Source: Candidatus Binatia bacterium
GTDB lineage: Bacteria; Desulfobacterota; Binatia; UBA9968; JAJDTQ01
NCBI GenBank assembly: GCA_963666515.2
Contig: OY762897.2
Location: 4,480,001-4,544,000 of the forward strand
DNA: 64,000 bases
Direction: 5' to 3'
The stretch's first letter is position 1. Each line of letters starts with the position of its first letter. The position numbers and the translations under genes were made by a program. Shown piece after piece: positions 15,596 through 30,766 of the stretch. Under the pieces are notes generated by a model. That model ran no database searches. It saw only the letters and a list, made by a program, of their open reading frames with translations, and had not been told where the DNA came from.

Positions 15596-15850
15596 ATGCC
15601 GAACGTTCACCTTACGGCACCGATGGAAGCCTACGTCAAGGGACAGATCGAATCCGGCGCCTATGCCAACCTGAGCGAGGTGGTGAGGGCGGGGCTCCGG
15701 CTGCTGATGGAACGGGACGGCGCGCGCCAGTTCTACGCGCTGAAGGCTGAGCTTGAGCACGCCGTGCGCGAAGCGGAGGCGGGGGCATTCGACGACTTCG
15801 ATCCTGACGGCTTCGATCCGGAAGCCTACCGCTGGCGTTCCAGGGCATGA
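15596..15850 (+). CDS. parD: Type II TA antitoxin, ParD/CC2985 ribbon-helix-helix family
   Basis: SGAYANLSEVVRAGLRLL signature; overlaps the downstream toxin start. Confidence 0.85.
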   Translation: MPNVHLTAPMEAYVKGQIESGAYANLSEVVRAGLRLLMERDGARQFYALKAELEHAVREAEAGAFDDFDPDGFDPEAYRWRSRA

Positions 15851-16164
15851 CCATCCGGCTATCCCGCTTGGCGCGACAGGATATGGAGGAAATCCGCCGG
15901 TACACGCTGGACACTTGGGGCCGCGAACAGTGGGCGAAATACTATCGGGGATTGGTCCGCGCATTCGAGGACATCATGGCCAATCCGGATCGCGGGCGCG
16001 ACCGAAGCCTGTTCGGGGCGGGCATGCGCTCAGTCAACTACGGAAGGCACGTCATCTTCTTTGCACGAATCAAGGCGGCTGGTAACGACCCGGTCATCCT
16101 GCGGATCGTCCATCAGCGCCGCAATATGCCCGCCCTGGTCTACTTCGAGGATCTGGACGGCTGA
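15847..16164 (+). CDS. parE: Type II TA toxin, RelE/ParE family
   Basis: RLSRLARQDMEEI..YT...WG..Q...Y, HVIFF and ILRIVHQRRN motifs. Confidence 0.87.
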   Translation: MTIRLSRLARQDMEEIRRYTLDTWGREQWAKYYRGLVRAFEDIMANPDRGRDRSLFGAGMRSVNYGRHVIFFARIKAAGNDPVILRIVHQRRNMPALVYFEDLDG

Positions 16165-16242: not shown

Positions 16243-16470
16243 TCAGCCCGCTTCATCCAGTGCCTGCTGCGGCAATACCGTTTGGGATCCGACAATGACG
16301 GGCTGTTGCACCGCGTTCGGGCCAAAGTCGATCCTGCAACCGGCGAGATCGCCGTCCAGCCTGACCTTGCCGCTGTTGACGAGGTGGATGACGACCGCCT
16401 TCAATTCGTCCGGGGTCGCCGCATGTTCGCCTACCGCGTTGATGACGTCCAGGAGCGTGAGTGACTTCAT
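16243..16470 (-). CDS. Small hypothetical protein (75 aa)
   Basis: MKSLTLLDVINAVGEHAATPDELKAVVIHLVNSGKVRLDG...; SD GAGGA and a sigma54 promoter upstream. Confidence 0.65.
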   Translation of the reverse strand: MKSLTLLDVINAVGEHAATPDELKAVVIHLVNSGKVRLDGDLAGCRIDFGPNAVQQPVIVGSQTVLPQQALDEAG

Positions 16471-16689: not shown

Positions 16690-16731
16690 AAAAAACCCCT
16701 CGGTGGCCGGTTACGGCTCGATCCCGAGGGG
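16690..16731 (-). terminator. Intrinsic terminator after etfA
   Basis: CCCCTCGG/CCGAGGGG inverted repeat followed by T6 on the minus strand. Confidence 0.6.
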
Positions 16732-16797
16732 GATTGGCTGATGCGTCAGCAGAACAGCCCAAAACTACTACGGATCGGGACTCGATGTCAACAGGTT

Positions 16798-17760
16798 TTA
16801 CTTGCGCGCCTTGATCTCTTCGATCAACTGGGGGACGACCTTGAAGACGTCGCCCACGATGCCGAGGTCGCACATCTGGAAGATGGGGGCGTCGGCGTCC
16901 TTGTTGACGGCGACGATCATCTTGGAGTCCTTCATGCCCGCCAGGTGCTGCACCGCGCCGGAGATGCCGCAGGCGATGTAGAGGTCGGGCTTGACGGTCT
17001 TGCCGGTCTGGCCGATCTGCAAGGAATAGGGCACCCAGCCCGAGTCCACCACGGCCCGGGTGGCTCCCACGGCCCCGCCCAGAAGGTCCGCCAGCTCCCG
17101 CAGCATGTCGAAGTTTTCTTCCGCGGCCAGCCCGCGTCCGCCGGCGACGATGACGTTGGCGCTGTCGAGTTGTGGACCCTCGGCCTTGGCGGTGACCTTC
17201 TCCTTGAGCCGGACCTTGCGGAGTTCCGCGTCCTCCGGGGGCGCGACCTCCTCCACCACCGGGGTTTTGGGATTCGGCGCGGGCTCGAAGGCCTTGGGCC
17301 GAACCAGCAGCAGCTTGACGTCGTCGTGCACCAGCGTGGCGGTGTTCCAGTAGCTGGCTCCCAAGGCGGGGATCTTCGCCTCGACGGTCCCGTTGGTCAG
17401 GGTGAAGTCGGCCACGTCGGTGATGGCGCCGCAGTCGAGGCTGGCGCTCAGGGCCGCGGCCACGTCCCGGCCGCCGTAGCTCGACGCCAGCAGCACCGCC
17501 GCGGGCTTGTGCTGCCGGATGAGGGACTCCACCACCGCCGCCGCCGGCAGCGTCAGGTAGTCGCGGAAGACCGGGTCCGCCGACCGGTAGACCTTGCCGG
17601 CGCCGTGCCGGCCCAGCAACTCCACCGCGTCGTCGGGAGCCGGACCGAGCAGGATCGCCTCCGCGGCGCCCACCGCGGCGGCCTTCGTCACCATCTCCAG
17701 CGTCGTGGAGGTGACGGCGTCATCCACCACCTCGCCATAGACCCAAATGATATCCGACAT
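16798..17760 (-). CDS. etfA: Electron transfer flavoprotein alpha subunit
   Basis: [27 protein letters not shown] and [11 protein letters not shown] motifs. Confidence 0.95.
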
Positions 17761-18540
17761 CTAAATGACCTTGGCCTCGGCCAGAAAGTCGGCGATGCGC
17801 TTGCCGCCCTCGCCGTCGTCCTCCACCACCTCGCCGACCTCGCGCTTCGGCGGCCTGCCGACCTCCAGCACCTTCTCCCGGGCGCCCTGCTCGCCCACTT
17901 CGTCCGCCGCAAGCCCGAGGTCCTCGACGGACATTTGCAGGATCTCTTTCCGCTTGGCCGCCATGATGCCCTTGAGCTGCGGGTAGCGGGGCTCGTTGAT
18001 GCCGCTGGTGACGGTCACCAGCGCCGGAAGCTCCGCCTCCACCACGTCGTAGCCGGTCTCGCTCTGGCGCTTGATGGACAGGGTCGAGCCCTCCACGGTC
18101 ATCTCGTTGGCGAAGGTCACCGGCGGCACCCCCAGCAGCCGCGCGAGCTGGCCGGGCACGATGCCGGAATAGCTGTCGCTGCTCTCGGTGCCGCAGATGA
18201 TGAGGTCGAAGGGTTTCTTGCGGATGGCCGCGGCCAGCGCCTTGGCGGTCGCCAGGGCGTCCGACCCCGCCAGCGCGTCGTCGAAGATATGCACCGCGGA
18301 GGTGGCCCCCATGGCCAGGGCGGTGCGGATGCCGATGGTGATCTCGTTGAACCCCATGGTCACGAGCGTGACCGTGCCGCCTGCCTTTTCCATCAGCCGC
18401 AGGGCCTCTTCCACGGCGCTGGCCGCGGCCGGGTCCAGCTCGTGGGCGACGCCCTTGCGGATCATCCGCTTGGTGGCGGGATCGATCTCGACGGTGACGG
18501 TGCTGGCAGGGATGATCTTGCCACAGACCACGATGTCCAA
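17761..18540 (-). CDS. etfB: Electron transfer flavoprotein beta subunit
   Basis: AVEEALRL, ALAMGA, LAGSDALAT and INEPRYP motifs; TTG start. Confidence 0.93.
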   Translation of the reverse strand: MDIVVCGKIIPASTVTVEIDPATKRMIRKGVAHELDPAAASAVEEALRLMEKAGGTVTLVTMGFNEITIGIRTALAMGATSAVHIFDDALAGSDALATAKALAAAIRKKPFDLIICGTESSDSYSGIVPGQLARLLGVPPVTFANEMTVEGSTLSIKRQSETGYDVVEAELPALVTVTSGINEPRYPQLKGIMAAKRKEILQMSVEDLGLAADEVGEQGAREKVLEVGRPPKREVGEVVEDDGEGGKRIADFLAEAKVI

Positions 18541-18635
18541 GGGAGGAACCTCCGGTAAGGGTAGTGGGGCCGGCAGCGCCGGTTATGACGTGGGTTCGAA
18601 GAAGACGGCGGGAGCGGGTCGGGGTTCTGGCGCGG

Positions 18636-18824
18636 TCACTCCAGCCACTCGGAAACCTTCCCCTCCATCACCAGGTCCAGGACCTCCCGGCAGTCCTGGA
18701 GGGCCTGGTCCACGATCTTGTCGTCCTTGATGTTGGGTATTGCCAGATTGACGGCGCCGTGGACCGCGGTGATGCAGTCCTTCAGGTGCTCGTCCAGTTC
18801 GACGGTATTGGGTGCCTGTGTCAT
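18636..18824 (-). CDS. Small acidic helical hypothetical protein (62 aa)
   Basis: Native codon usage; 13 nt after the diiron gene and co-oriented with etfBA. Confidence 0.65.
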   Translation of the reverse strand: MTQAPNTVELDEHLKDCITAVHGAVNLAIPNIKDDKIVDQALQDCREVLDLVMEGKVSEWLE

Positions 18825-18837
18825 TTCCTGTACAGCC

Positions 18838-19560
18838 TCAGGTGTAGAGCCGTCCCTCGTTGGGGTCGGGGATCTCGAGTCCCATGTCCGTGATGAGAGC
18901 GTTGATCTCGGCGGTGTACTCCTCCCGCTGCTGGCGGTTGGTGCGCCTCTTGAGCCCCCAGTAGCGGTAGCGCTCGGAGCGTTTCGAGTCGGACTTCCCG
19001 AACATGTCCAGACCCTTGACGTACCAATAGTTGACGGATTTCTGGACGCGTTCCTTGGACTCGTCTCCTTTTTCAGCCATCTCCCGGGTCAGGTTGGTGC
19101 CGAAGGCGATGTGGGCCGACTCCTCCAGCTCCATGGTGGGAAGGATCTCCGCGAGAGGGGTGTAGCTGCAGTCCTCGAACTCCTCGAGCTGGAAGCGGCC
19201 CACCCGGTCGATCAGGAAGCCGAAGACCGCGAAGTCTTCCCAGGTGGTGATCTTGCCGCGGAAGGCCTCCACGTAACGCTTCTGGTTGGGCCAGTTCAGC
19301 ACGTACGACACGTCCTCGCCGATGTCCCCTGCCAGACGAGCCATCTTCCGGTAGTGGTCCACCTCCTCGGCCGCGGTCCGCGCCACCACGAGCTGGTACA
19401 GTTTCGTCGGCGCGTTGGGGAGCATGTCCTCGATGTAGAGATGCGGCCCCCCGATCTCGCAGTCGCACTGGATCGCGAGAACCCGCTTCAGCAGATCCTG
19501 GTACTCCGGATCCATCTTTTCGAAATCTTTCAACTCGACCTTGTCGGTGAACATGGGCAT
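18838..19560 (-). CDS. PaaA/BoxB-like ferritin-fold diiron protein (aromatic acyl-CoA epoxidase family)
   Basis: Ligand pattern DCE, EEVDH, GFLIDRVG, EESAH; LDMFG and WGLKRRTNRQQR typical of PaaA; SD AAGGAG. Confidence 0.8.
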   Translation of the reverse strand: MPMFTDKVELKDFEKMDPEYQDLLKRVLAIQCDCEIGGPHLYIEDMLPNAPTKLYQLVVARTAAEEVDHYRKMARLAGDIGEDVSYVLNWPNQKRYVEAFRGKITTWEDFAVFGFLIDRVGRFQLEEFEDCSYTPLAEILPTMELEESAHIAFGTNLTREMAEKGDESKERVQKSVNYWYVKGLDMFGKSDSKRSERYRYWGLKRRTNRQQREEYTAEINALITDMGLEIPDPNEGRLYT

Positions 19561-19702
19561 GTCTCCTTGGTGAAATACCAACTGAATTCCGGTTAGCATG
19601 GGGCTACGCCGAACGCAAGCGGAAGTGGGGAGAAGGCTTTACTCGCGGATGGCCGCGTCATAAACTGACCTCTGTACACGGTACCAGGGGTATAGGGGAG
19701 AG

Positions 19703-20356
19703 ATGTCGGACAACGTGCTCAGCAGTGTGACGGTGCCGAAGAACTCCGGCCGCGCCTTCACGGTGAGAACTGGCCAGTGCATCCGGGTGGCAGGCCGGTC
19801 GATTGTGGATTTGGTCGCCTTCAACCTGCATGACCTGACCGAGCGGTTCGATCAGGCCAGGACCAAGACCAACCAGTGCAAGATCTTCATCAGCACCGGC
19901 GATCAGCTCCTGTCGAAGGACAACAATCCGATGCTGACCATTGTGGCGGACACGTTCGAGGAAGGGCGGCACGACCTGCAGAAGGGCATGTGCAGCCGCA
20001 AGCGGTTCGAGCTGGTGGCCGCGGGACTGTCCCGGCGGATATTCATCGAGGGGGTGGACCCCAACCCGAAGAAGCCGGAGGACCTTCCCACACACGGGTG
20101 CTATGAGAACCTGTCCGAGGCCGTCCGTCCGTGGGACATCGCCCCGGTGGACGTCCCCAGCCCGTTCAACATCTTTCAGACCATGCGCATCGATCCTGAC
20201 ACGGGCGCCCTGCTCGACACCTTCATCCGCCCGAAGGATGAGGCCCACGTGGACTTTCGCGCGGAAATGGACTGTCTGGTGGCGGTCAGCGCCTGTCCGG
20301 AGTCCGGGCGGGGGCAGGCGATTCGTGTGGAGATATTCGAACCGGAGGGCGGATGA
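19703..20356 (+). CDS. DUF1989 (urea carboxylase-associated / CgdAB-like) protein
   Basis: HDLQKGMCS, HGCYENL, PSPFNIF and VAVSACP motifs. Confidence 0.85.
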   Translation: MSDNVLSSVTVPKNSGRAFTVRTGQCIRVAGRSIVDLVAFNLHDLTERFDQARTKTNQCKIFISTGDQLLSKDNNPMLTIVADTFEEGRHDLQKGMCSRKRFELVAAGLSRRIFIEGVDPNPKKPEDLPTHGCYENLSEAVRPWDIAPVDVPSPFNIFQTMRIDPDTGALLDTFIRPKDEAHVDFRAEMDCLVAVSACPESGRGQAIRVEIFEPEGG

Positions 20357-21555
20357 CCATGGATGTGCGCGAAGCCTTCCACGTGGCCGATGAGCACGTC
20401 GATAATGCCGAGCTGGACGCGCTGTTCACCGAATTGCTGCGGGTCCCGTCGGAGCACACGGAGCGCATGGAGTCCGATCCGGCGGTGACGGCGTTCATCG
20501 CCGACGTAGTGGCGCCGAGGCTCCAAGCCCTCACCGGCGTGGCGCCGCGGACCGACGGCATGGGCAACCTGCGCTGGGAGCACGGCGGCGCAACGTCGGA
20601 TCCGGCGGAGGGACTGCTCTTCATGGGCTATGCCATGACCTACCCGGCGAGCACCATGCCGGAGCCGTTCTCGGGAAAGGTCGTGACCGGGGAGCCCCAC
20701 GGGCTCGAGGGACCGTGCGTGTGGGGCCGGGGCGGTTGCGAGCAGAAGGCCGCGCTGGCAGCCATGCTGGCGGCCGCGGCCGCGATAACGCGGTCGGGCC
20801 GGGAGTTGACGCGGCCGCTTTCGCTCGCCGTGAGCACGGCTGGCGAGACCGGGCGGCACGACGCAGCCCGGCACATGCTGGAGCAGGACGGGCTGGCGGC
20901 CCGTTACGGCATCGTCGGGCTGGGCACTACAAACCGGGTCTGTCTCGGCAACAAGGGCCGCATCGATGTGGAGGTGGTGGTGCACGGCAAGTCCTGCCAC
21001 AGCAGCACGCCGTGGGCCGGGGTCAACGCGGTGGACGGCGCCCGCGCGGTGCTGGAGCGCCTGGACGGTCTGGTGGACGGCCTCTCCCACCCGGAGTTAG
21101 GGGAGGCGAGCCTGGTGGCCACCCACATCGAGAGCGGCCCCGACATCCTGCACACCATCCAGGACCGCTGCCGACTGACGCTGGATCGGCGTCTACTGCC
21201 GGGCGATGACCCCGGTGAAGCGCTGGCCGCGATCACCAGGGCCCTAGCCGACCTTGAGCCCTGGGAGGTGGAGGTCACTCAGGGCAACTTCATGTATCCC
21301 GCGGAGGTTTCGGAAGAAAGCGCGGTGGCGGCGGCTCTGGAGGCGGCGCGCGGGCAGGCAAGGGAGACCGGTCCGCCGCTCTGGTTCCCCGCGGCGCTGG
21401 ACGCGGGCTACCTGAACGAGAAGGGCATCGAGACCGTCATGTTCGGCCCGGGAGACCTGGCCTTCGCTCATACCGACGCCGAGGTGGTGCCGCTGGAGCA
21501 GGTGCGCCGGGCGGCCCGGGTGTACGCCGCCGCGGCGCTGCAACTGCTTGCGTGA
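20353..21555 (+). CDS. M20/ArgE-DapE family protein with degenerate metal ligands
   Basis: WGRG, GKSCHSSTPWAGVNA, LDRRLLPG and FGPGDLAFAHT motifs. Confidence 0.8.
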   Translation: MTMDVREAFHVADEHVDNAELDALFTELLRVPSEHTERMESDPAVTAFIADVVAPRLQALTGVAPRTDGMGNLRWEHGGATSDPAEGLLFMGYAMTYPASTMPEPFSGKVVTGEPHGLEGPCVWGRGGCEQKAALAAMLAAAAAITRSGRELTRPLSLAVSTAGETGRHDAARHMLEQDGLAARYGIVGLGTTNRVCLGNKGRIDVEVVVHGKSCHSSTPWAGVNAVDGARAVLERLDGLVDGLSHPELGEASLVATHIESGPDILHTIQDRCRLTLDRRLLPGDDPGEALAAITRALADLEPWEVEVTQGNFMYPAEVSEESAVAAALEAARGQARETGPPLWFPAALDAGYLNEKGIETVMFGPGDLAFAHTDAEVVPLEQVRRAARVYAAAALQLLA

Positions 21556-21597
21556 AAGGGACCCTCCCGATGTCCCGCGACATCGAGAGGGTCCCTT
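21556..21597. terminator. Hairpin between convergent genes (probable terminator)
   Basis: AAGGGACCCTC-CCGATGTC-CCGC-GACATCGA-GAGGGTCCCTT inverted repeat. Confidence 0.65.
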
Positions 21598-21641
21598 CCT
21601 CGCATTTGGTGACGGCGCGAGCCGTCGATCCTGCTTCTATC

Positions 21642-22661
21642 CTACTTCTTCCACCCCTGGTTGTTATACCAGGCCAGGGCCTTGTCGTAGAACTCCTGGA
21701 ACATGATGTCCTTCATCGGCGGGATCTTGGTGTCCTTGGCGATGGACTTGGTCCAGAAAGCCGAATCGATGTACGCCTTGATGCCCCCTGCGGTCGCCTG
21801 ACAGCGGTCGGGGATGGATTTCGCTTCCACCACCTCGATCTCGTACATCTTCTTGGCGATGTGCGGCTTGTTGCGCATCACGTTCTGGTAGACGTTCAGC
21901 ACCTCTTCGGCGTTCTTGGGGTCGTTAACGAAGGCGCATCCGCGAATGAGCGTGCCGAACAGGGCGACGGACTTGTCGGGGTTGTCCTTGATGAAGTTCT
22001 TGTTCATGGCGAGCTGCAGGAACGCATATTCCTTGACGAACTGTTCCGCGGCGCCGAGAACGGTCAACCCCGCATCGCGTGCCGCCAGCATCTTGCCGAA
22101 GGTGAGCGAGCCCACGTCGATCTTGCCGGCCTTGACGCCTGCCAACCGCGCGGACGATCCGCCGACCTTGACCAGACGCACGTCCTTCTCCGGGATGCCC
22201 GCGTTCTGCAGCAGCTTGAGGGAGACGTAGACGTTGCCGGACGTGGGAGAGCTGATGCCCACCTTCACCGGCCGCGGCAGGTCCTTGTAGGACTTGACGT
22301 GCTTCCCGCCTACGAGCCAGTAGGGCAGGGTGTTCAACTCGGTGCCGACGATGCGGATGTTGCTGCCCGGCCGAATGGCCAGCGCGATGTTGTCGTCCGA
22401 GCCGAAGAAGGGGAGCTGACCCCGTTCCAGAGCGAGGACCGCGGCATTCTCACCACCTGATACCGAGTAGACCCTGGCGTCGTAGCCGATGTCCTTGAAG
22501 AAACCCTTGTGGATGCCCACCTGCTCCACCAGCGACGTGGTGGAGTTGGTCTGCGCCACCGGAATGCGGAGCTTCTCCAACGCGAGCGCCTGACCGCCCC
22601 AGAGCAGTAGCGCGCCCAACAGGGCGGCGACGACCCCCTTGACGATGCACTTCTCCCTCAT
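21642..22661 (-). CDS. ABC substrate-binding protein, NMT1/SsuA/THI5-like (copy 3)
   Basis: Signal peptide; GFFKDIG, VGISSPTSG and GGSSARLAG motifs; paralogous to its neighbours. Confidence 0.85.
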   Translation of the reverse strand: MREKCIVKGVVAALLGALLLWGGQALALEKLRIPVAQTNSTTSLVEQVGIHKGFFKDIGYDARVYSVSGGENAAVLALERGQLPFFGSDDNIALAIRPGSNIRIVGTELNTLPYWLVGGKHVKSYKDLPRPVKVGISSPTSGNVYVSLKLLQNAGIPEKDVRLVKVGGSSARLAGVKAGKIDVGSLTFGKMLAARDAGLTVLGAAEQFVKEYAFLQLAMNKNFIKDNPDKSVALFGTLIRGCAFVNDPKNAEEVLNVYQNVMRNKPHIAKKMYEIEVVEAKSIPDRCQATAGGIKAYIDSAFWTKSIAKDTKIPPMKDIMFQEFYDKALAWYNNQGWKK

Positions 22662-22700
22662 GCGTTTCCTCCTTGGTTAAGCGCTGCGGCGCAGCGCATG

Positions 22701-22740
22701 AAAAAAGGCCGCCTCCGGCACCGTGGCGCCGGAGGCGGCC
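22701..22740 (-). terminator. Intrinsic terminator between binding-protein copies 2 and 3
   Basis: GGCCGCCTCCGGC...GCCGGAGGCGGCC followed by T6 on the minus strand. Confidence 0.75.
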
Positions 22741-22749
22741 CGTACTCCG

Positions 22750-23769
22750 TTACTTCTTCGTCCAGCCCTTGTTCTTGTACCAGGCCAGGGCGCGGTCGTA
22801 GAACTCGGGGAACATGATCTGACTGGCCGGCGGTATCTTGGTGTCCGCCGAGATGGACTTGCTCCAGACGGCAGACTCGATGTACGCCTTGATAGCCGAC
22901 TCCGTGATCTGGCACCGGCTGGGTATGGACCCTCCGGCCACCTCGATGTTGTACATCTCTGCGCCGATGTCATCAGGGTTGCGCATGACCTTCGTGATCA
23001 CGTGCATCACCTCTTCCTTGTTTGCGGGGTCGTTCACGAAGGCACACCCGCGGATCAGGGTGCCGAACATGGCCTCGGCCTTGTCCGGGTTGTCCTTGAT
23101 GTAGTTCTTGTTCATGGCGAGCTGCAGGAATGCGTATTCCTTGACGAACTGGTTCGCCGCGCCGAGGATCGACAGGTCCGCCTTCTTGGCGCGCAGCATC
23201 ATGCCGAAGGTCAGCGAGCCCACGTCGATCTTGCCGCCCTTGACGCCCGCCAGCCGCGCCGACGATCCGCCGACCTTGACCAGCCGGGTGTCCTTTTGGG
23301 GGATGCCGGCCGCCTCGAGCAGCTTGAGGGACACGTAGACGTTACCCGAGGTGGGAGAGCTGATCCCGACCTTCACCGGCCGCGGCAGGTCCTTGTATGC
23401 CTTGACGTGTTTCCCGGCCACGAGCCAGTACGGCAGCACGTTCATCTCGCTGCCAATGACCCGGATGTTGCTGCCCGGCCGAATGGCGAGGGGGATGTTG
23501 TCGTCCGAGCCGAAGAAGGGGAGCTGGCCCCGTTCCAGGGCGAGGACGGCGGCGTTCTCACCACCCGATACCGAGTAGACCCTGGCGTTATAGCCGATTT
23601 CCTTGAAGAAGCCCTTGTAGATGGCGGTCTGCTCCACCAGCGCCGTGGTGGTGCTGGTCATCGCGACCGGGATGCGGAGATCCTCCATCGCGAGCGCTTG
23701 GCCACCGAATAGCAGACCGGCTCCCAGAAAGGCTGCGGCGATTGTTTTCCAAATGCGCTTGGATTTCAT
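22750..23769 (-). CDS. ABC substrate-binding protein, NMT1/SsuA-like (copy 2)
   Basis: Same motifs as copy 3; shares long identical blocks such as YSVSGGENAAVLALERGQLPFF. Confidence 0.85.
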   Translation of the reverse strand: MKSKRIWKTIAAAFLGAGLLFGGQALAMEDLRIPVAMTSTTTALVEQTAIYKGFFKEIGYNARVYSVSGGENAAVLALERGQLPFFGSDDNIPLAIRPGSNIRVIGSEMNVLPYWLVAGKHVKAYKDLPRPVKVGISSPTSGNVYVSLKLLEAAGIPQKDTRLVKVGGSSARLAGVKGGKIDVGSLTFGMMLRAKKADLSILGAANQFVKEYAFLQLAMNKNYIKDNPDKAEAMFGTLIRGCAFVNDPANKEEVMHVITKVMRNPDDIGAEMYNIEVAGGSIPSRCQITESAIKAYIESAVWSKSISADTKIPPASQIMFPEFYDRALAWYKNKGWTKK

Positions 23770-23785
23770 GAGTAGTCCTCCTTTG

Positions 23786-24808
23786 CTACTTTTTCATCCA
23801 GCCCTTGTTGTTGTACCAGGCAAGGCCCTTGGCGTAGAACTCGGGAAACAGGATCTGGTCGATGGGCGGAACCTTGGTGTCCGCCGGGATGGACTTGGTC
23901 CAGAAGGCCGAATCGAGGAAGGCCTTGATGCCCGCCTCGGTGCCCTGGCAGCGGTCCGGGATGTGCTTGCTCTCGATCACCTCGATCTCGTACATCTCCT
24001 TGGCCAGGCTCGGCTTGTTGCGCATGACCTTCGTGAGGACGTGCATCACCTCTTCCCTGTTCTTCGGGTCGTTGACGTACGCACACCCGCGGACGAGGGT
24101 GCCGAACATGGCCGTGGCCTTGTCCGGATTGTCCTTGATGTAGTTCCTGTTCATGCCGAGTTGCGTAAAGGCGTACTCCTTCACGAACTGGTTGGCGGCG
24201 CCGAGGATCGTCAGTTCCGCTTCCCTGGCGCGCAGCATGTTGCCGAAGGTGAGCGACCCCACGTCGATCTTGCCCGCCTTGACGCCCGCCAAGCGCGCCG
24301 ACGACCCGCCGACCTTCACCAGGCGCACGTCCTTTCTGTGGATGCCGGCGGTCTCGAGCAGCTTGAGGGACACGTAGACATTGCCCGAGGTGGGAGAGCT
24401 GATACCTACTTTCACGGGCCTTGGCAGGTCCTTGTACGACTTGACGTGTTTGCCGCCCACCAGCCAGTAGGGCAGCGTGTTCATCAAGGTGCCGACGACC
24501 CGGATGTTGCTGCCGGGACGAATGGCCAGGGGAACGACGTCGTCCGAGCTGAAGAAGGGGAGTTGACCCCGTTCCAGGGCCAGCACGGCGGCGTTCTCGC
24601 CGCCCGACACCGAGTAGACCGCGGCGTCGTAGCCGATCTCCTTGAACCAGCCCTTGTATATGCCCATCTGCTGCACCAGCGCGGTGCTCGAGTTGGGGGA
24701 CGCCACCGGGATACGCAGCTTCTCCAGGGCCAGCGCGTGGCCGGCGAATAACAGGCTTGCTCCCAACAGGGCTGCGGCGACTCTTCCTGCGACAAGTTCA
24801 GTTTTCAT
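23786..24808 (-). CDS. ABC substrate-binding protein, NMT1/SsuA-like (copy 1)
   Basis: Same motifs and shared blocks as copies 2 and 3. Confidence 0.85.
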   Translation of the reverse strand: MKTELVAGRVAAALLGASLLFAGHALALEKLRIPVASPNSSTALVQQMGIYKGWFKEIGYDAAVYSVSGGENAAVLALERGQLPFFSSDDVVPLAIRPGSNIRVVGTLMNTLPYWLVGGKHVKSYKDLPRPVKVGISSPTSGNVYVSLKLLETAGIHRKDVRLVKVGGSSARLAGVKAGKIDVGSLTFGNMLRAREAELTILGAANQFVKEYAFTQLGMNRNYIKDNPDKATAMFGTLVRGCAYVNDPKNREEVMHVLTKVMRNKPSLAKEMYEIEVIESKHIPDRCQGTEAGIKAFLDSAFWTKSIPADTKVPPIDQILFPEFYAKGLAWYNNKGWMKK

Positions 24809-24896
24809 CGGCTTCCCTCCTTGTTTGTGAGACTCAGCCCAGAACTTCGCGTCATTGCCGGTGCATAGGAATGGCGCTCGCCTGGCGAACTGCAGA

Positions 24897-25688
24897 CTAT
24901 TCCTCCATGGCCTTGCGGGCTTCGTCCGCCAGCAGCTCCCAAATGTCGTGCTTGATCTGCAGGAACTCGGGTTCTTCCTTGACTCGTAGTGTGCGGGGGG
25001 TGGGGAACGGGACCTTGATCTCCTTCATGATGGTGCCGGGCCGGAAGCTGAAGCAGAACACGATATCGGAAAGGAAGACGGCTTCCTCGATATCGTGGGT
25101 GACGAAAATCACGATCTTGCCGGAGTTCTTCCAGTCCACCATGCGCTGGAGCTCTTCCTGCATGAGCAGGCGCGTCTGTGCGTCCAGCGATGCGAAGGGC
25201 TCGTCCATCAGAAGGATTTCGGGATTCACGGCCAGTGCCCGGGCGAGGTTCACCCTCTGCTGCATGCCGCCGGACAGTTCATGGGGGTAGTGGCTCTCGA
25301 AGCCGCGCAGGCCGACGATCTGCGTGTACTTGTCGCAGATTTCCATCTTCTCCGTGGCGCTCTTGGTGCGGTCGTTCTCGATACCGAACTTGATGTTGTC
25401 GGTCACGTTGCGCCAAGGCAGCAGCAGGGCCTGCTGGAACACCACGGCCTTGTTGGGCGTCGGGCCGACCACCTCGTCCCCGTCCAGAAGGATGCGGCCC
25501 CGGGTGGGCGGAAGCAGTCCGTGGATCATGTGCAGCATGGTCGTCTTGCCGCATCCGCTGGGACCGACGAACGAATAGAACGTCCCCGGCCGGAGATCCA
25601 TGTCGATCCCGCCCACGGCGTGGACCGTCTCTCCGGTGGGTTTCATGAATGTTTTGTGGACCTGTTCTACCTGAATCGATGACGACAC
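24897..25688 (-). CDS. ABC transporter ATP-binding protein (TauB/SsuB type)
   Basis: GPSGCGKT, LSGGMQQR, LLMDEPF and VTHD motifs. Confidence 0.93.
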   Translation of the reverse strand: MSSSIQVEQVHKTFMKPTGETVHAVGGIDMDLRPGTFYSFVGPSGCGKTTMLHMIHGLLPPTRGRILLDGDEVVGPTPNKAVVFQQALLLPWRNVTDNIKFGIENDRTKSATEKMEICDKYTQIVGLRGFESHYPHELSGGMQQRVNLARALAVNPEILLMDEPFASLDAQTRLLMQEELQRMVDWKNSGKIVIFVTHDIEEAVFLSDIVFCFSFRPGTIMKEIKVPFPTPRTLRVKEEPEFLQIKHDIWELLADEARKAMEE

Positions 25689-25691
25689 GGA

Positions 25692-26477
25692 CTACTCCTG
25701 TAGTTGGGTATCACGCCAGGGCGCCATGCGGCGCTCGATCATGAGGATGACCTGGTTGAAGATCACGCCGGTGCCGGCGAGCATGGCCGCGCACGACATC
25801 ATGAGCGGCATGTTGAAGGTGTCGAGCCCCTTGAAAAGCTGATAGCCGAGGCCCGCATAGGCGCCGAAATATTCTCCCACGACGACGCCGACGATCCCGC
25901 GGGAGATGCCCAGGCGCAGCCCCGTGACGATGTACGGGAGCGAACCCGGAATCAGGATCTTGTAGAGGATCTGGCGCTGGGGGATGCAGAACGAGTTGGC
26001 CAGGGTCTGGAACTCCTTGCCGACGCTCAGCACCCCCGTGTAGGTGTTCAGGACGATGGGGACCACCGCGGTGATGAGGACGATGACGATCTTGGCGGTG
26101 AGGTCCACGCCGAACCAGATGATGATGAGCGGGGCCAGGGCCACCGACGGGGTGGCGTAGATGGCGCTGAGCCAGGGATCGAAGAACTCCCGGAACACCC
26201 GGCTGATGCCGAACACCATGCCGAAGCCGATGCCCGAGGCCGCGGCCACGGCGTAGCCCCAGAAGAACTCGATGCCGCTGATCTGAAGATCGTCGAGGAT
26301 CTCGCCGCTGGCGAAGAGCTCGTAGGTGTAGGTGACGACCCGCCACGGGCCCACGAAGAACAGCTCGCTGCCCACCTGCCAGTCCGCGAACTGCCAGAAC
26401 GCCGCAACGATGGCGAAACCGAAGAAGGCGTTCAGCCACTTGCGCTGCTGCTGATAAAGGTTTGACAAGGCTTCCAT
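25692..26477 (-). CDS. ABC transporter permease (TauC/SsuC type)
   Basis: Multiple TM helices; P..ALAPL..IWFG and PGSLPYIVTGLRLG motifs. Confidence 0.9.
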   Translation of the reverse strand: MEALSNLYQQQRKWLNAFFGFAIVAAFWQFADWQVGSELFFVGPWRVVTYTYELFASGEILDDLQISGIEFFWGYAVAAASGIGFGMVFGISRVFREFFDPWLSAIYATPSVALAPLIIIWFGVDLTAKIVIVLITAVVPIVLNTYTGVLSVGKEFQTLANSFCIPQRQILYKILIPGSLPYIVTGLRLGISRGIVGVVVGEYFGAYAGLGYQLFKGLDTFNMPLMMSCAAMLAGTGVIFNQVILMIERRMAPWRDTQLQE

Positions 26478-26501
26478 GGTCCTGCTTCCGGCTCTTTCGA
26501 C

Positions 26502-27329
26502 CTACACCAGGGTCTTTCTGTAAGGCGTGGCCCAGCGCTCGACGAACTTCAGCGCCTCGTTGCCGGCGATGCCCATGATGGTCAGCAGCGAGATGCCCAC
26601 CATCATCTCGGCCACGTGGAACGTCTGCGTGGCGTGGTCGATCATGTAGCCGATGCCGGCCTCGGCGCCGAACAGCTCTGCGACCATGATGGTGACCACG
26701 GACCGGGAGTAGCCGAGCCGAAGGCCCGCGATCAGGAACGGCATCGATCCCGGCACGATGATCTTGGTCAGCATGGCCCAGAAGGAAATGTTGAACGCCC
26801 GGCCCAGCATGCGGAACTCGCCCTGGACGTTCTTGATGCCGGCCTGGGTGTTGATGATCACGGGGAAGACCGAGGCCAGGGTGATGACGCCGACCTTGGA
26901 GGCGATGCCCAGCCCCAGCCAGATGATGAACAGCGGTGCGGCCACCGAGCGCGGCGTGGCGTAGAGACCCACCAGGATGGGGGAGAACATCTCGTCCAGG
27001 GTCCGGCTGAAGGCCACCCCTGCGCCGATGACCACCCCGAGAAACGTGGCCAAGGCGAAGCCGTACACGAGTTCGGTGCTGCTGTAGCTCACGTGCTCCC
27101 AGAAGCGGGGCTCGTAGATCAGCACGGTGAACTCGATTGCCACCGCGACGGGGCCGGTGAAGAAGTCGGGGTCGTCGAAGATGAAGTCGATGAACTCCCA
27201 CGTCAACAGGGCCAAGACCACGGACAGGCAGAAGTTGATGCCGATGCGGTGGCGGTTGTAGGCGGCTCTCACCGACGCTGCAAACGAATCGTCGGTGTCT
27301 TCGAGGGGTATCTCTTGTGTCTTGCTCAT
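26502..27329 (-). CDS. ABC transporter permease (TauC/SsuC type)
   Basis: TM helices; IWLGLG, PGSMPFLIAGLRLG and AELFGAEAGIG motifs. Confidence 0.9.
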   Translation of the reverse strand: MSKTQEIPLEDTDDSFAASVRAAYNRHRIGINFCLSVVLALLTWEFIDFIFDDPDFFTGPVAVAIEFTVLIYEPRFWEHVSYSSTELVYGFALATFLGVVIGAGVAFSRTLDEMFSPILVGLYATPRSVAAPLFIIWLGLGIASKVGVITLASVFPVIINTQAGIKNVQGEFRMLGRAFNISFWAMLTKIIVPGSMPFLIAGLRLGYSRSVVTIMVAELFGAEAGIGYMIDHATQTFHVAEMMVGISLLTIMGIAGNEALKFVERWATPYRKTLV

Positions 27330-27490
27330 GGAATTCGATGGGCGCGGGAATGGGGCTCCGATTCGGTCAAGCCCTGCGTCTTACGGGTATTGCGAACATA
27401 TGTCAAGCGGTTTTGGATGCCCGTTTTCGGCAATTTTTCGGGCGAATTGCGCGCTGCTGACTCCGTCTCGACACCCGCCGGACGAAGGGC

Positions 27491-28036
27491 CTACACCACG
27501 ACCACCTCGTCGGCTTCGTCGATTTCCGCGACCCTGACGCGCACGTCGCCGCCCTTCGACACGTCGACCTCCTTGCCCACCAGACGGGCCTCGATGGGCA
27601 GTTCCCGTCCGCCCCGGTCCACCAACACGGCCAGGAAGATGGCCTTGGGCCGGCCCAGGGCCATCAGGTGGTCCACGGCGGCGCGCACGGTGCGGCCCGT
27701 ATGGAGGACATCGTCGAACAGGATCAGGGTCCTGTCGGTGACCTCGAACGGGATGTGGGTAGCGTCGATGCGTCCCTTGGGGAGCAGCGTGTTGAGGTCG
27801 TCGCGGTAGAGGGTGATGTCCAGTTCGCCCACTGGCACCTGCAAGGCGTGCCGTTGCCCGAGGATATCCGCCACCCGCCGGGCCAGGGTCGGGCCCCGGG
27901 TGCGGATGCCGATGAACGCCAGCGAGCCGGAGTCCCGGTAGTCCTCGGAGATGCGTCGGGCAAAGCCCGTGAGGACCCGTTTGATCTGCGCCGCGCTGAG
28001 CACGCGGGTGGTCTTGGCCGGCCTAGATTTCTGCAT
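27491..28036 (-). CDS. pyrR: Bifunctional pyrimidine regulator PyrR / uracil phosphoribosyltransferase
   Basis: GIRTRG, LDITLYRDD, DDVLHTGRTVRAA and VDRGGRELPI motifs. Confidence 0.92.
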   Translation of the reverse strand: MQKSRPAKTTRVLSAAQIKRVLTGFARRISEDYRDSGSLAFIGIRTRGPTLARRVADILGQRHALQVPVGELDITLYRDDLNTLLPKGRIDATHIPFEVTDRTLILFDDVLHTGRTVRAAVDHLMALGRPKAIFLAVLVDRGGRELPIEARLVGKEVDVSKGGDVRVRVAEIDEADEVVVV

Positions 28037-29282
28037 GAGCGGCTCTCAGGATGGCTTCCACAAGGAGCTGGGTTCCGAGGCAGATGTCCTCGGGGTCGGT
28101 CCACTCCGTCGGGTTGTGACTGACGCCGTTGGTGCTGGGAATGAAGATCATGCCGGTGGGCGCGACCCGGGCCATCTGCATGGCGTCGTGCCCAGCCCCC
28201 GACGGCATCACCTCGAAGGGAACGTCGCGTTCCTCGCACATGCCGCGGATGAGCGCGATCACGCCCGGGTGCATGGCCACCGGCTCCTCGTCCCGGATGG
28301 TCACGATCTCGGCCTTCACGCCCCGCTCCCGGGCGATCTGCCGGGCCCGCTTCCGGATCAGCCCGGCCACCTTGCGCTTGGAGGCGGAGGTGATGCTGCG
28401 CACGTCCACCTGCAGTTCCGCCCGGCCGGGTATGGCGTTGATGACCCCCGGCTCCACCTTGACCGCGCCCACCGTGCCCACCACCCGGCCCTTCTCCGTG
28501 GCGGAATGTTCCCGGCAGACCTCGTCGATGTAGGTGATGAGGTATCCCGCGGCCACCAGCGCGTCCTTGCGCATTTCCATGGGGGTGGTGCCGCTGTGGT
28601 CCGCCTGCCCCTTGAAGACCACCCTGAACCGGCTCGGGGCGGCGATGGCCGTGACCACGCCGATCTTCTTCTTCTTCGATTCGAGCACGGGTCCCTGCTC
28701 GATGTGGAGTTCGAGGTAGGCCTTGACCGTGTCGGGATCCCGTTTCAGCGAGTCGAGGTTCTCCCGGTAGATGCCCAGGCTCGACAGCACGTCCTCGAGC
28801 CGGTTGCCGCCCGCGTCCACGGCGTTGGCGAAGTCGTCCATGGTGACGTCGCCCGCCACCAGGCTGCTGCCCAGGGTGGCGAACCCGAAACGGCTGGATT
28901 CCTCGCCGACGAAGCAGACGCTTTCCAGCGGCGCCGGCAGGGAAACGCCGCTCTCCTTGATGGTGCGCACCGCTTCGAGGGCGCCGATGACCCCCACCGG
29001 GCCGTCGTACCGCCCCCCCTGGACCACCGAATCGAGGTGCGACCCGGCCAGCACCGCCGGTCCTTCCCGTGCCGCCGCCAGCCGCCCGAAGATGTTCCCC
29101 GCCGCGTCCACGTGCACGTCCAGGCCGGCCTGGTTCATCAGGTGGACCAGCAGTTGCCGGGATCGCAGCTCGTGCACCGAGAACACCAGCCGCGTGACCG
29201 CGCCGCCCTCGCCCAGGCCGATGCGCGACACCGCGTTGAGGTCGCGCAAGAGCCTGTCTCTATTGATTTCGGGGACTTCCAT
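28023..29282 (-). CDS. Zn-dependent N-carbamoyl amidohydrolase (allantoate amidohydrolase / beta-ureidopropionase family)
   Basis: GSHLDSV, GRYDG, GEESSRF, ELHIEQG, HSGTTPM, SGAGHDA and SHNP motifs. Confidence 0.9.
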   Translation of the reverse strand: MEVPEINRDRLLRDLNAVSRIGLGEGGAVTRLVFSVHELRSRQLLVHLMNQAGLDVHVDAAGNIFGRLAAAREGPAVLAGSHLDSVVQGGRYDGPVGVIGALEAVRTIKESGVSLPAPLESVCFVGEESSRFGFATLGSSLVAGDVTMDDFANAVDAGGNRLEDVLSSLGIYRENLDSLKRDPDTVKAYLELHIEQGPVLESKKKKIGVVTAIAAPSRFRVVFKGQADHSGTTPMEMRKDALVAAGYLITYIDEVCREHSATEKGRVVGTVGAVKVEPGVINAIPGRAELQVDVRSITSASKRKVAGLIRKRARQIARERGVKAEIVTIRDEEPVAMHPGVIALIRGMCEERDVPFEVMPSGAGHDAMQMARVAPTGMIFIPSTNGVSHNPTEWTDPEDICLGTQLLVEAILRAAHAEI

Positions 29283-29383
29283 CCGACGACTCGACCGATC
29301 GGGAGAGGAAGCATGGTAACAGGAAAGGACGGACGTAAACAACGTCTGGCAAAGGCTCATCCGCCGTGATAAGAACCGCATCC

Positions 29384-30052
29384 ATGTCCGAGACCGGAAA
29401 GAGAATCGCCGAGTTGCTGCTGAGCACGCAGTCCATCCAGGTGTACGACGAAAGACCCTTCGTGTTCGTCTCGGGCCGGGTCTCGCCGGTCTACATCGAC
29501 TGCCGCCGTCTGCTGTCCTTCCCGGAGGCCCGGGACGAGATCCTGGAGGCGCTGGCGCAGATCGCGCGCCGCGACATCGGCCTCGACAACATGGACGTGG
29601 TGGCCGGGGGCGAGACCGCGGGCATTCCCTATGCCGCCTTCGTCTCCCACTACCTGCGGAAGCCCATGATCTACATCCGCAAGAACCCCAAGGGCTACGG
29701 GCACACCAACCAGATCGAAGGCGTCCTTGGCGAGGGCCAGCGGGTCACGCTGGTGGAGGACTTGGTGACCGACGGCTTCAGCAAGCTCCGCTTCAACATC
29801 GGGGTCCGCGCCCAGAAGGCGCGCATCACTCACTGCCTCTGTGTCTTCGAGTACAGCTCCGACAATCTGGACATGCACGAGGGAAAGAAGAACCTGGGCG
29901 ACCACGACATCAGCCTGCACACCCTGTCCAACTGGGACGACGTCCTGGACGCCGGCGAAGAGACGCAGTTCTTCTCTCAGGAGAACCGGGACCAGATCGT
30001 CGATTTCCTCAAGGACCCCTCCAACTGGGGCCGCCGCATGGGCTTCGAGTAA
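29384..30052 (+). CDS. pyrE: Orotate phosphoribosyltransferase
   Basis: SGRVSPVYIDCR, AGGETAGIP, YIRK.PKGYG and VEDLVTDG motifs. Confidence 0.9.
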   Translation: MSETGKRIAELLLSTQSIQVYDERPFVFVSGRVSPVYIDCRRLLSFPEARDEILEALAQIARRDIGLDNMDVVAGGETAGIPYAAFVSHYLRKPMIYIRKNPKGYGHTNQIEGVLGEGQRVTLVEDLVTDGFSKLRFNIGVRAQKARITHCLCVFEYSSDNLDMHEGKKNLGDHDISLHTLSNWDDVLDAGEETQFFSQENRDQIVDFLKDPSNWGRRMGFE

Positions 30053-30078
30053 CGGCCGCTGCCGACAATGCCCGAACC

Positions 30079-30106
30079 CGTCATTCCGGCGAAAGCCGGA
30101 ATCCAG
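30079..30106. repeat. REP/RPE-type palindromic element
   Basis: CGTCATTCCGGCGAAAGCCGGAATCCAG hairpin of the GTCATTCC..GAAA..GGAATCCA class, between convergent genes. Confidence 0.7.
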
Positions 30107-30133
30107 GCGGGGCGGGGAGCGGTAGGTCTGCCG

Positions 30134-30766
30134 TCACTCCTCCTCGTAGATCTCCACATCCACCGGCTTTCCCCCCACCGGCATGTCCGGGCACGCGCTG
30201 AAGGCCGCCAGAAGGTCCCGCTCCGCGCGCATGTCCACGTTGGTGGGCGCCGCAGGCCGGATGGCGGTGTGCTGCATCAGCCCGGTCTTGCCGTCGATGA
30301 TCATGTGCTGGAAGAGGTTGAAGGGGCTCGGAATATCCTCCGGCGCGATGTCGTAGGGCGCCAGCGCCCCGGACAGGTTCTCCCAGCAGCCGTGGTCCGG
30401 GATCTCGTCGTCCCGGTAGTCCCGGTGGTAGTACTCCCGCAGCCGCCCCTCCTCCTTGGCCAACTGGAAGCGGCGTCCGCTGCACATTCCCTTCTGCAGG
30501 TCGTGGGTGCCTTCCTCGAAGGTGTCCGCCACGATGGTCATGAAGTGTTGGTTGTCCCGGGACATCAGCTTGTCGCCGGTGCTCAGGAAGATTTTCCCGT
30601 TGTAGACCTTGGTGCGGGCCTGGTCGAACCGCTCCCGCAGGTTGTCCCGGTCCAGCACCAGGAAGTCCACCGTGGACATGGCGATGATGCGGATGATCTG
30701 CCCCTCCTTGAGGTCCCCGGACCAGCCGCTGTTGGCGGCGACGTGCTCGCTGGATATCTTTTTCAT
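30134..30766 (-). CDS. DUF1989 protein (second paralog)
   Basis: ERFDQARTK, HDLQKGMCS, HGCWENL, PSPFNLF and SACP motifs shared with 19703..20356. Confidence 0.85.
   Translation of the reverse strand: MKKISSEHVAANSGWSGDLKEGQIIRIIAMSTVDFLVLDRDNLRERFDQARTKVYNGKIFLSTGDKLMSRDNQHFMTIVADTFEEGTHDLQKGMCSGRRFQLAKEEGRLREYYHRDYRDDEIPDHGCWENLSGALAPYDIAPEDIPSPFNLFQHMIIDGKTGLMQHTAIRPAAPTNVDMRAERDLLAAFSACPDMPVGGKPVDVEIYEEE

Follow-up and report, generated by a model that had tools for sequence, protein, structure and literature searches.

The window analysed here is a 64,000-nucleotide stretch (positions 4480001-4544000) of the genome of an uncultured soil bacterium, Candidatus Binatia (4.67-Mb assembly, 98.35% complete). 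Its subject is a four-gene block on the minus strand (window positions 16690-19554) that encodes a diiron protein related to PaaA, a 62-aa protein, and EtfB and EtfA, the two subunits of an electron-transfer flavoprotein (ETF). A first-pass annotation of this DNA had described a co-oriented run of these genes that ends in a terminator. All four genes are found co-oriented in the order diiron gene, 62-aa open reading frame (ORF), etfB and etfA, and are followed by a hairpin with six U residues (U6). The features of the block are listed below.

18838..19554, minus strand: PaaA-type diiron protein, putative catalytic subunit, 238 aa (PF05138, fold and iron ligands).
18636..18824, minus strand: 62-aa predicted helical-hairpin partner of the diiron protein, without known family (ORF, AlphaFold2 model and complex model).
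18570..18582, minus strand: short GC hairpin (CCGGC-GCU-GCCGG) some 29 nt ahead of etfB, within the 95-nt spacer, without a U-run in the window's subclade.
17761..18540, minus strand: etfB, ETF beta subunit (PF01012, 138 bits; single tblastn match in the genome).
16798..17760, minus strand: etfA, ETF alpha subunit, FAD-binding, abutting etfB (PF00766, 131 bits, and PF01012, 85 bits; single tblastn match in the genome).
16690..16732 (approximate), minus strand: intrinsic-terminator-like hairpin and U6 after etfA (sequence and fold).

The diiron gene sits in a longer ORF (18838-19599). Because nearly all of its 120 listed best homologs are 238 aa long, spanning 94% of the longer ORF, the true start is most likely M16 at 19554, which gives a protein of 238 aa. 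The 62-aa ORF starts 13 nt past the diiron gene, and a 95-nt spacer then separates it from etfB. ETF domains are recognized by Pfam in both etf genes. The hairpin 3' of etfA is formed by CCCCUCGG...CCGAGGGG and runs into the U6 tract (about 16690-16732 on the minus strand). A pattern-based scan listed no terminator after etfA because the loop of this hairpin is longer than the limit of the scanner. Rfam gave no match at E values up to 1 between window positions 16400 and 19800.

The diiron protein belongs to the PaaA_PaaC family (PF05138, 85.1 bits against a cut-off of 28.5). It scores below the equivalog cut-offs of both PaaA (TIGR02156, 81.5 bits; cut-off 280) and BoxB (TIGR03225, 39.1 bits; cut-off 499). 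An AlphaFold2 (AF2) model built on an alignment of 29 diverse relatives has a predicted local distance difference test (pLDDT) score of 96.5. The best Foldseek matches of this model are the PaaA chains of PaaAC and PaaABC complexes, with query-normalized TM-scores (TMq) of 0.86-0.89, and further matches include SSO1313 (4mud) as well as BoxB and PaaC (TMq 0.76-0.79). The closest solved chain by sequence is 4mud (E value 2e-18), followed by PaaA (2.5e-13). The iron ligands of PaaA are E42, E72, H75, D126, E155, and H158 (PMC4498308). When the diiron protein is aligned to 3pvr_A, these are matched by E33, E64, H67, D116, E145, and H148, in agreement with the earlier claim that all diiron ligands are intact. 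In the 29 diverse relatives, E64, H67, E145, and H148, the residues of both ExxH motifs, show no variation or at least 90% conservation.

The relationship with PaaA is a distant one. A quick maximum-likelihood tree of 149 rows, including E. coli PaaA and distant representatives, places the window's diiron protein in a 118-row clade with a Shimodaira-Hasegawa-like approximate likelihood ratio test (SH-aLRT) support of 99. E. coli PaaA lies outside this clade on a branch of 2.2 substitutions, and the diiron protein does not cluster with canonical PaaA. As the first-pass annotation had noticed, it is also shorter than either of its characterized relatives (238 aa versus 309 aa in E. coli PaaA and 470-481 residues in BoxB chains). 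Because its scores fall below both equivalog cut-offs and the tree places E. coli PaaA outside its clade, the diiron protein is, judged by its sequence, not an orthologue of PaaA or BoxB. The wider family of proteins of about 235 aa has 629 representatives at 50% identity (E up to 1e-3).

Public records give the automatic names "PaaA" and "PaaI", which would imply another reading, in which the window encodes a subunit of a canonical phenylacetyl-CoA or benzoyl-CoA epoxidase whose partners are encoded elsewhere. We consider this highly improbable, and the equivalog scores and the tree argue against it. So does the search for partners. It had been claimed earlier that no partners of the PaaABCE or BoxA type lie in the window, and for PaaB, PaaE, and BoxA this now extends to the whole genome. 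PaaB (PF06243) has no match in the genome. The search for PaaE (TIGR02160) returned a 19.6-bit ferredoxin piece only, in a six-frame search in which no control genome reached the cut-off either. The search for BoxA (TIGR03224) returned ferredoxin pieces only, none of them above 26.5 bits. By tblastn, the genome holds homologs of LigXa-type Rieske oxygenases (at least 11) and of enoyl-CoA hydratases (about 20), yet a PaaE-like FNR/2Fe-2S reductase was not found in it.

The sole other PF05138 gene of the genome is 380 kb away and encodes a 371-aa protein (G000:C1:4118747-4121213; L046:7802-10214). It was considered as a PaaC-like partner, and its orthologue adjoins a paralog of the diiron-small gene pair in one locus only (L029), where it lies directly upstream. 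The 371-aa protein has extra N- and C-terminal parts. Its gene is convergent with that of a Fer4+CCG iron-sulfur protein; ahead of the latter lies a gene for a 411-aa protein without a Pfam family, and an M24 peptidase gene is also nearby.

The 62-aa protein has no match to any Pfam or NCBIfam family, and an Atlas search with it gave a best score of 0.77, which is below the lead threshold. AF2 predicts that on its own it forms a helical hairpin of helices 7-31 and 35-53 (pLDDT 75). The pairing of the diiron and 62-aa proteins, which the first-pass annotation had proposed, is supported by complex prediction: the interface score ipSAE is 0.91 in three runs and 0.02 in the best of three controls. 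Of 80 solved complexes, 58 attain this mark of 0.91, as do two of 110 mismatched pairs, although these counts are only approximate where custom alignments are used. The runs share at least 98% of their contacts, and the pLDDT of the 62-aa partner is at least 89. The pairing is also conserved between genomes. All 75 ETF-linked relatives have a small gene after the diiron gene (median gap 13 nt), as do 17 of the 24 copies that are not linked to ETF; it was not found in the other seven (E up to 1e-5).

In the modelled complex, the hairpin contacts diiron-protein residues 37-46 and 51-87. These are the end of the E33 helix and the E64xxH67 helix, which correspond to helices B and C. In PaaA and PaaC, helices B and C build the antiparallel four-helix bundle of the PaaAC heterodimer (PMC9493321), and PaaA by itself is insoluble, this surface being hydrophobic (PMC4498308). 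Because the modelled hairpin sits on the surface that PaaC covers in PaaAC, the 62-aa protein may be understood as a minimal stand-in for PaaC. It had earlier been taken for a PaaB-like adaptor, an assignment that we abandon: it has no Pfam match, hhalign gives it a probability of 0.1% against E. coli PaaB, and the model places it on the PaaC-side helices B and C. By the same method, its probability is 0.2% against E. coli PaaC and 0.9% against the 90-aa ORF that follows the Rhodococcus RHA1 homolog, so that it resembles none of the three. Helix C of PaaA also faces the proposed docking surface of PaaE (PMC4498308), so the 62-aa protein, if placed as modelled, may affect access of a reductase. 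We are highly confident that the diiron and 62-aa proteins represent a real, conserved, and uncharacterized diiron oxygenase of the PaaA type, made up of two subunits of which the 62-aa one is new.

Conservation of the link to ETF was followed in loci from species genomes (33) and metagenomes (80), together with the ETF-bearing places of two further genomes. The metagenome stretches were matched by a pattern from a 9-row alignment, and 574 of the first 600 such stretches encode a diiron relative. Linkage was counted for the window and 117 relatives of at least 50% identity, with one duplicate (L041) removed. A copy was called linked if etfB lies within 900 nt downstream, and not linked if at least 1.3 kb of downstream sequence lacks etfB. 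By this measure, 76 copies are linked to ETF, 24 are not, and 17 are cut by a contig end. The first-pass annotation had named two things that would speak against its reading, clustering with canonical PaaA with partners elsewhere in the genome and a linkage to etfBA that is not conserved. Neither is seen: 76 of the 100 decidable copies have the linkage, and the tree keeps the protein apart from canonical PaaA. The copies without ETF form three or four supported subclades within the 118-row clade of the window. They are mostly paralogs: genomes G001 and G002 each carry an ETF-linked copy as well, and six of the seven genomes of the order that have a paralog-type copy have two copies.

The flanks of the block are variable. 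Among the 75 ETF-linked relatives, 41 have a nicotinate phosphoribosyltransferase gene as their divergent upstream neighbour and 19 have a DUF1989 gene, followed by an M20 gene; neither was detected in 15. Genes downstream of the block also vary among loci. The four-gene block is kept although both flanks changed between clades. Nicotinate phosphoribosyltransferase was considered as a functional partner because of its 41 loci, but the only homolog in the window's genome is 39% identical and lies elsewhere, and the association is treated as synteny. Near the window's block, a ParD/ParE toxin-antitoxin pair (15596-16164) lies between the etfA terminator region and a Mg-chelatase-like gene; it is present in many, not all, close relatives.

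The diiron gene and this type of ETF share a narrow distribution. When 151 genomes of the class were sampled, the diiron gene (called at E up to 1e-40) was found in all 18 genomes of the three families of one order (8/8, 8/8, and 2/2) and in none of the 132 genomes of the 16 other families. In a survey of 61 genomes, EtfB of the window's type (68-100% identity) is confined to the same order, where seven of eight genomes have it, that of the window (G000) included. Outside the order, the best EtfB matches reach 33-40% identity and are often located in open frames of 600-870 aa, which suggest fused EtfB-EtfA proteins. The diiron gene and this etfB are adjacent in all seven genomes in which both were located. 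The block is a single lineage-specific unit, which fits a joint function of its genes.

Clues to the substrate come from the surroundings of the paralogs. In L029, an enoyl-CoA hydratase gene and the gene for a 365-aa PaaA-like protein are followed by the diiron-small pair and then by cytochrome oxidase and LigXa-type Rieske genes. In L030, the pair is preceded by genes for two HGD-D subunits and a BcrAD-type ATPase (a set like class-I benzoyl-CoA reductase), a short-chain dehydrogenase/reductase (SDR), an amidohydrolase_2 protein, and an enoyl-CoA hydratase. Genes for a Rieske protein, an SDR, a hydratase, and two acyl-CoA dehydrogenases follow it. LigB and cupin dioxygenases occur in the contexts of the paralogs in L063 and L070. 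The crotonase-family enzymes PaaG and BoxC deal with the epoxide of the Paa and Box pathways (PMC4498308), a role that matches the hydratases beside the paralogs in L029 and L030. In four further loci (L062, 6720-7637; L066; L078; L102), a regulator with HTH_3 and shikimate-kinase-like parts is encoded directly downstream of the diiron gene, with overlapping stop and start. This layout is presumably that of the benzoyl-CoA sensors BzdR and BoxR. The paralogs of these four loci form a subclade without the small gene, and genes for two receiver-domain proteins precede the diiron gene.

More distant relatives, too, have thioester-related genes around them. Relatives of about 30% identity on the Alteromonas plasmid pAMDE1 (L128) and on a Burkholderia stagnalis plasmid (L129) form a conserved trio with a radical SAM protein and a hotdog protein (MaoC dehydratase or PaaI thioesterase). 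This trio is another uncharacterized PaaA-like system, and in Burkholderia it adjoins genes for a non-ribosomal peptide synthetase, a halogenase, and an acyl-homoserine-lactone synthase. A Rhodococcus RHA1 relative, also about 30% identical, is followed by an overlapping 90-aa ORF and has a hydratase gene nearby.

Taken by their gene content, the paralog contexts point to thioesters and aromatics, and a CoA thioester is probably the substrate, a view we hold with somewhat more than even confidence. The first-pass annotation had seen a hint of a nitrogenous substrate in the DUF1989 and M20 genes. This hint is lost: the two genes flank 19 of the 75 ETF-linked relatives, those of the window's subclade only, and being subclade-specific they are no clue to the substrate. 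They are part of a subclade-specific island (window 19703-30766) that holds a pair of DUF1989 genes (50% mutual identity), two genes each for M20 peptidases and for phosphoribosyltransferase-domain proteins, an ABC importer, and three tandem paralogous genes for NMT1/THI5-type binding proteins (21642-24808). From these genes, the island looks like one for uptake and breakdown of a nitrogen-containing small molecule.

These observations suggest how the system may work. The 238-aa and 62-aa proteins would together make up a diiron oxygenase of the PaaA/BoxB type with two subunits. The larger one would hold a carboxylate-bridged diiron site and, by homology, would most likely epoxidize or hydroxylate a CoA thioester with O2. 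The two-helix small subunit would pack on helices B and C and replace the structural subunit PaaC. Two electrons would be required per turnover. Acyl-CoA dehydrogenases, or another donor, would reduce the FAD of ETF, which would then reduce the diiron site.

The last of these steps is read from synteny, and we give it somewhat less than even confidence. ETF is nevertheless the best single candidate for the electron donor, because the genome search yielded no reductase of the PaaE or BoxA type, the genes of the block are tightly co-inherited, and butyryl-CoA:oxygen oxidoreductase (BOOR), compared below, offers a precedent. The fuller proposal is that ETF serves as the reductase of a ferritin-fold oxygenase, of the bacterial multicomponent monooxygenase type, which is cut down to the 238-aa protein and a 62-aa hairpin that replaces PaaC, and which would draw on beta-oxidation electrons instead of NAD(P)H. 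We put this forward tentatively. A literature search found no description of an ETF-diiron oxygenase system, nor of ETF in Binatia.

Several findings weigh against ETF as the donor. In a rival account, the genes are neighbours only. The diiron-small pair would then be an independent oxygenase that draws on a ferredoxin or another reductase encoded elsewhere, etfBA would encode a housekeeping ETF of beta-oxidation, and the adjacency would have been inherited once in this order. The first finding concerns the spacer between the small gene and etfB, which has a median length of 110 nt. In sister clades, most loci (L049-L108; e.g., L096:7017-7133) carry a terminator-like element, AAAGGCGCC-(loop 3-13 nt)-GGCGCCUUUGU, about 45 nt before etfB. 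The window's spacer (18541-18635) belongs to a subclade that retains the short GC hairpin only, with no U-run. A scan of 78 spacers, from 77 relatives and the window, found a hairpin with a T-rich tail (at least four T in the next eight bases) in 38, a hairpin without a T-run in 32, the window included, and no hairpin in eight. An alignment of 15 spacers shows eight invariant or near-invariant stem pairs, three pairs that covary, and loops of differing length, a pattern that an RNA hairpin or terminator appears to fit better than an operator of fixed spacing. The element could be a terminator, an attenuator, or an mRNA-stabilizing 5' hairpin. Because a conserved terminator-like hairpin precedes etfB, etfBA may be a separate transcription unit.

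Other findings concern ETF itself and its distribution. A tblastn search of the genome gave one match each for etfB and etfA, which make up its only ETF, and the genome holds at least ten acyl-CoA dehydrogenase matches. This ETF must serve those enzymes too, and its position may be that of a housekeeping gene. The linked loci all belong to a single order and count as one evolutionary event, and 24 of the 100 decidable copies have no adjacent ETF. Genome G038 (another class, 90% complete) has a 47% identical homolog with no small gene or ETF nearby and no EtfB match genome-wide. In genome G157, which is of the window's order (97% complete, 210 contigs), a paralog-type copy is present and EtfB gave no match. 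These two genomes count against an obligate requirement for ETF in the wider family. On the side of the oxygenase, Lys68 of PaaA, the "lysine bridge" to Glu49, Glu72, and Asp126, aligns with T60, with R59 adjacent, and the Glu49 position aligns with I41, with E42 adjacent, in a pairwise alignment to 3pvr_A that is uncertain here.

Given the terminator-like element in the spacer, the housekeeping work that the only ETF has to do, and a distribution confined to one lineage, the neighbours-only account is almost as likely as ETF being the donor. It has difficulty with the survival of the block through changes on both flanks and with the narrow distribution that this ETF type shares with the diiron pair. 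Three loci with spacers of 13, 19, and 51 nt, in none of which a hairpin was found, also speak against it, as does the failure to find a PaaE- or BoxA-type reductase in the genome.

The best PDB relatives of EtfB are the bifurcating ETFs CarD, 5ol2, and 4kpu (143-114 bits), and human ETF scores 104 bits. A glycine at position 123 of A. fermentans EtfB is said to be invariant in bifurcating ETFs (PMC12630350). The window's EtfB has Ser123, not Gly, in the motif DSYSGIVP, as compared with DGDTAQVG in 4kpu_B and DDDCNQTG in human ETF. From these residues, the ETF appears neither clearly bifurcating nor clearly canonical.

ETF:quinone oxidoreductase (ETF-QO, PF05187) was not found in the genome. 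A search for a membrane iron-sulfur protein like EtfD of Mycobacterium tuberculosis, which has transmembrane helices, gave four CCG proteins, none with a hydrophobic segment in a Kyte-Doolittle scan. These negative results, the position of the diiron-small pair directly upstream of the only ETF, and the precedent of BOOR are what would be expected if the diiron-small complex were an ETF oxidase. It would then re-oxidize ETF and reduce O2 to water without an organic substrate and, by analogy with BOOR, serve a lineage that lacks ETF-QO as a soluble sink for electrons from beta-oxidation. PF05187 is however missing in 146 of the 151 genomes of the class, with or without the diiron gene, and was found in five. 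The idea that loss of ETF-QO tracks the diiron gene was rejected, since PF05187 is missing almost everywhere in the class, and this general absence carries no information on the diiron protein. The paralogs, moreover, lie in substrate-specific catabolic clusters, and the fold is that of PaaA, a substrate-tunnel oxygenase. An oxidase role is thus improbable.

The oxygenase reading matters in several ways. A minimal PaaA-type version with a new small subunit is carried by a widespread soil lineage. If ETF does feed the enzyme, diiron oxygenases would have a new route of electron supply, and the case would show how oxidation of aromatic or alicyclic CoA esters can be directly coupled to beta-oxidation. 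Even without coupling to ETF, a 62-aa substitute for PaaC would be a compact and testable case of subunit replacement, and it could ease the expression of PaaA-type enzymes.

To our knowledge, PaaA and BoxB are the only characterized diiron epoxidases of CoA esters, and both require dedicated NADPH reductases. A known protein of similar size is SSO1313 of Sulfolobus solfataricus (4mud), an uncharacterized structural-genomics protein of 235 aa with a target-normalized TM-score (TMt) of 0.89. It is about 23% identical to the window protein, and a literature search found no publication on it. BoxAB, the benzoyl-CoA 2,3-epoxidase (3per, 3pm5), is a diiron CoA-ester epoxidase with a transiently bound reductase. 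An enzyme of the enoyl-CoA hydratase family acts next in the Box pathway, as genes of this family stand beside two paralogs here. BoxB differs in being about 475 aa long (TMq 0.76), and BoxA was not found in the window's genome. BOOR of Fusobacterium nucleatum passes electrons from acyl-CoA by way of an EtfA-like flavin domain to its diiron site and on to O2 (PMC12288474). That site is however part of a flavodiiron protein, which has a metallo-beta-lactamase fold and includes a rubredoxin relay, and BOOR is an oxidase and not a ferritin-like oxygenase of the PaaA fold. Another close characterized system is PaaABCE, the 1,2-phenylacetyl-CoA epoxidase of E. coli (3pvr, 3pw8, 4iit), whose PaaA has the same fold and the same six iron ligands as the window protein. 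The two also have in common a C-terminal WGLKxRxN...PDP region, and in both a partner covers helices B and C, as modelled for the window protein. The window protein is shorter (238 versus 309 aa) and about 23% identical to PaaA, and no PaaB, PaaD-linked, or PaaE genes were found with it. Where PaaABCE has PaaC and an FNR/2Fe-2S reductase, the window has a 62-aa predicted hairpin in the place of PaaC and an ETF as the neighbour.

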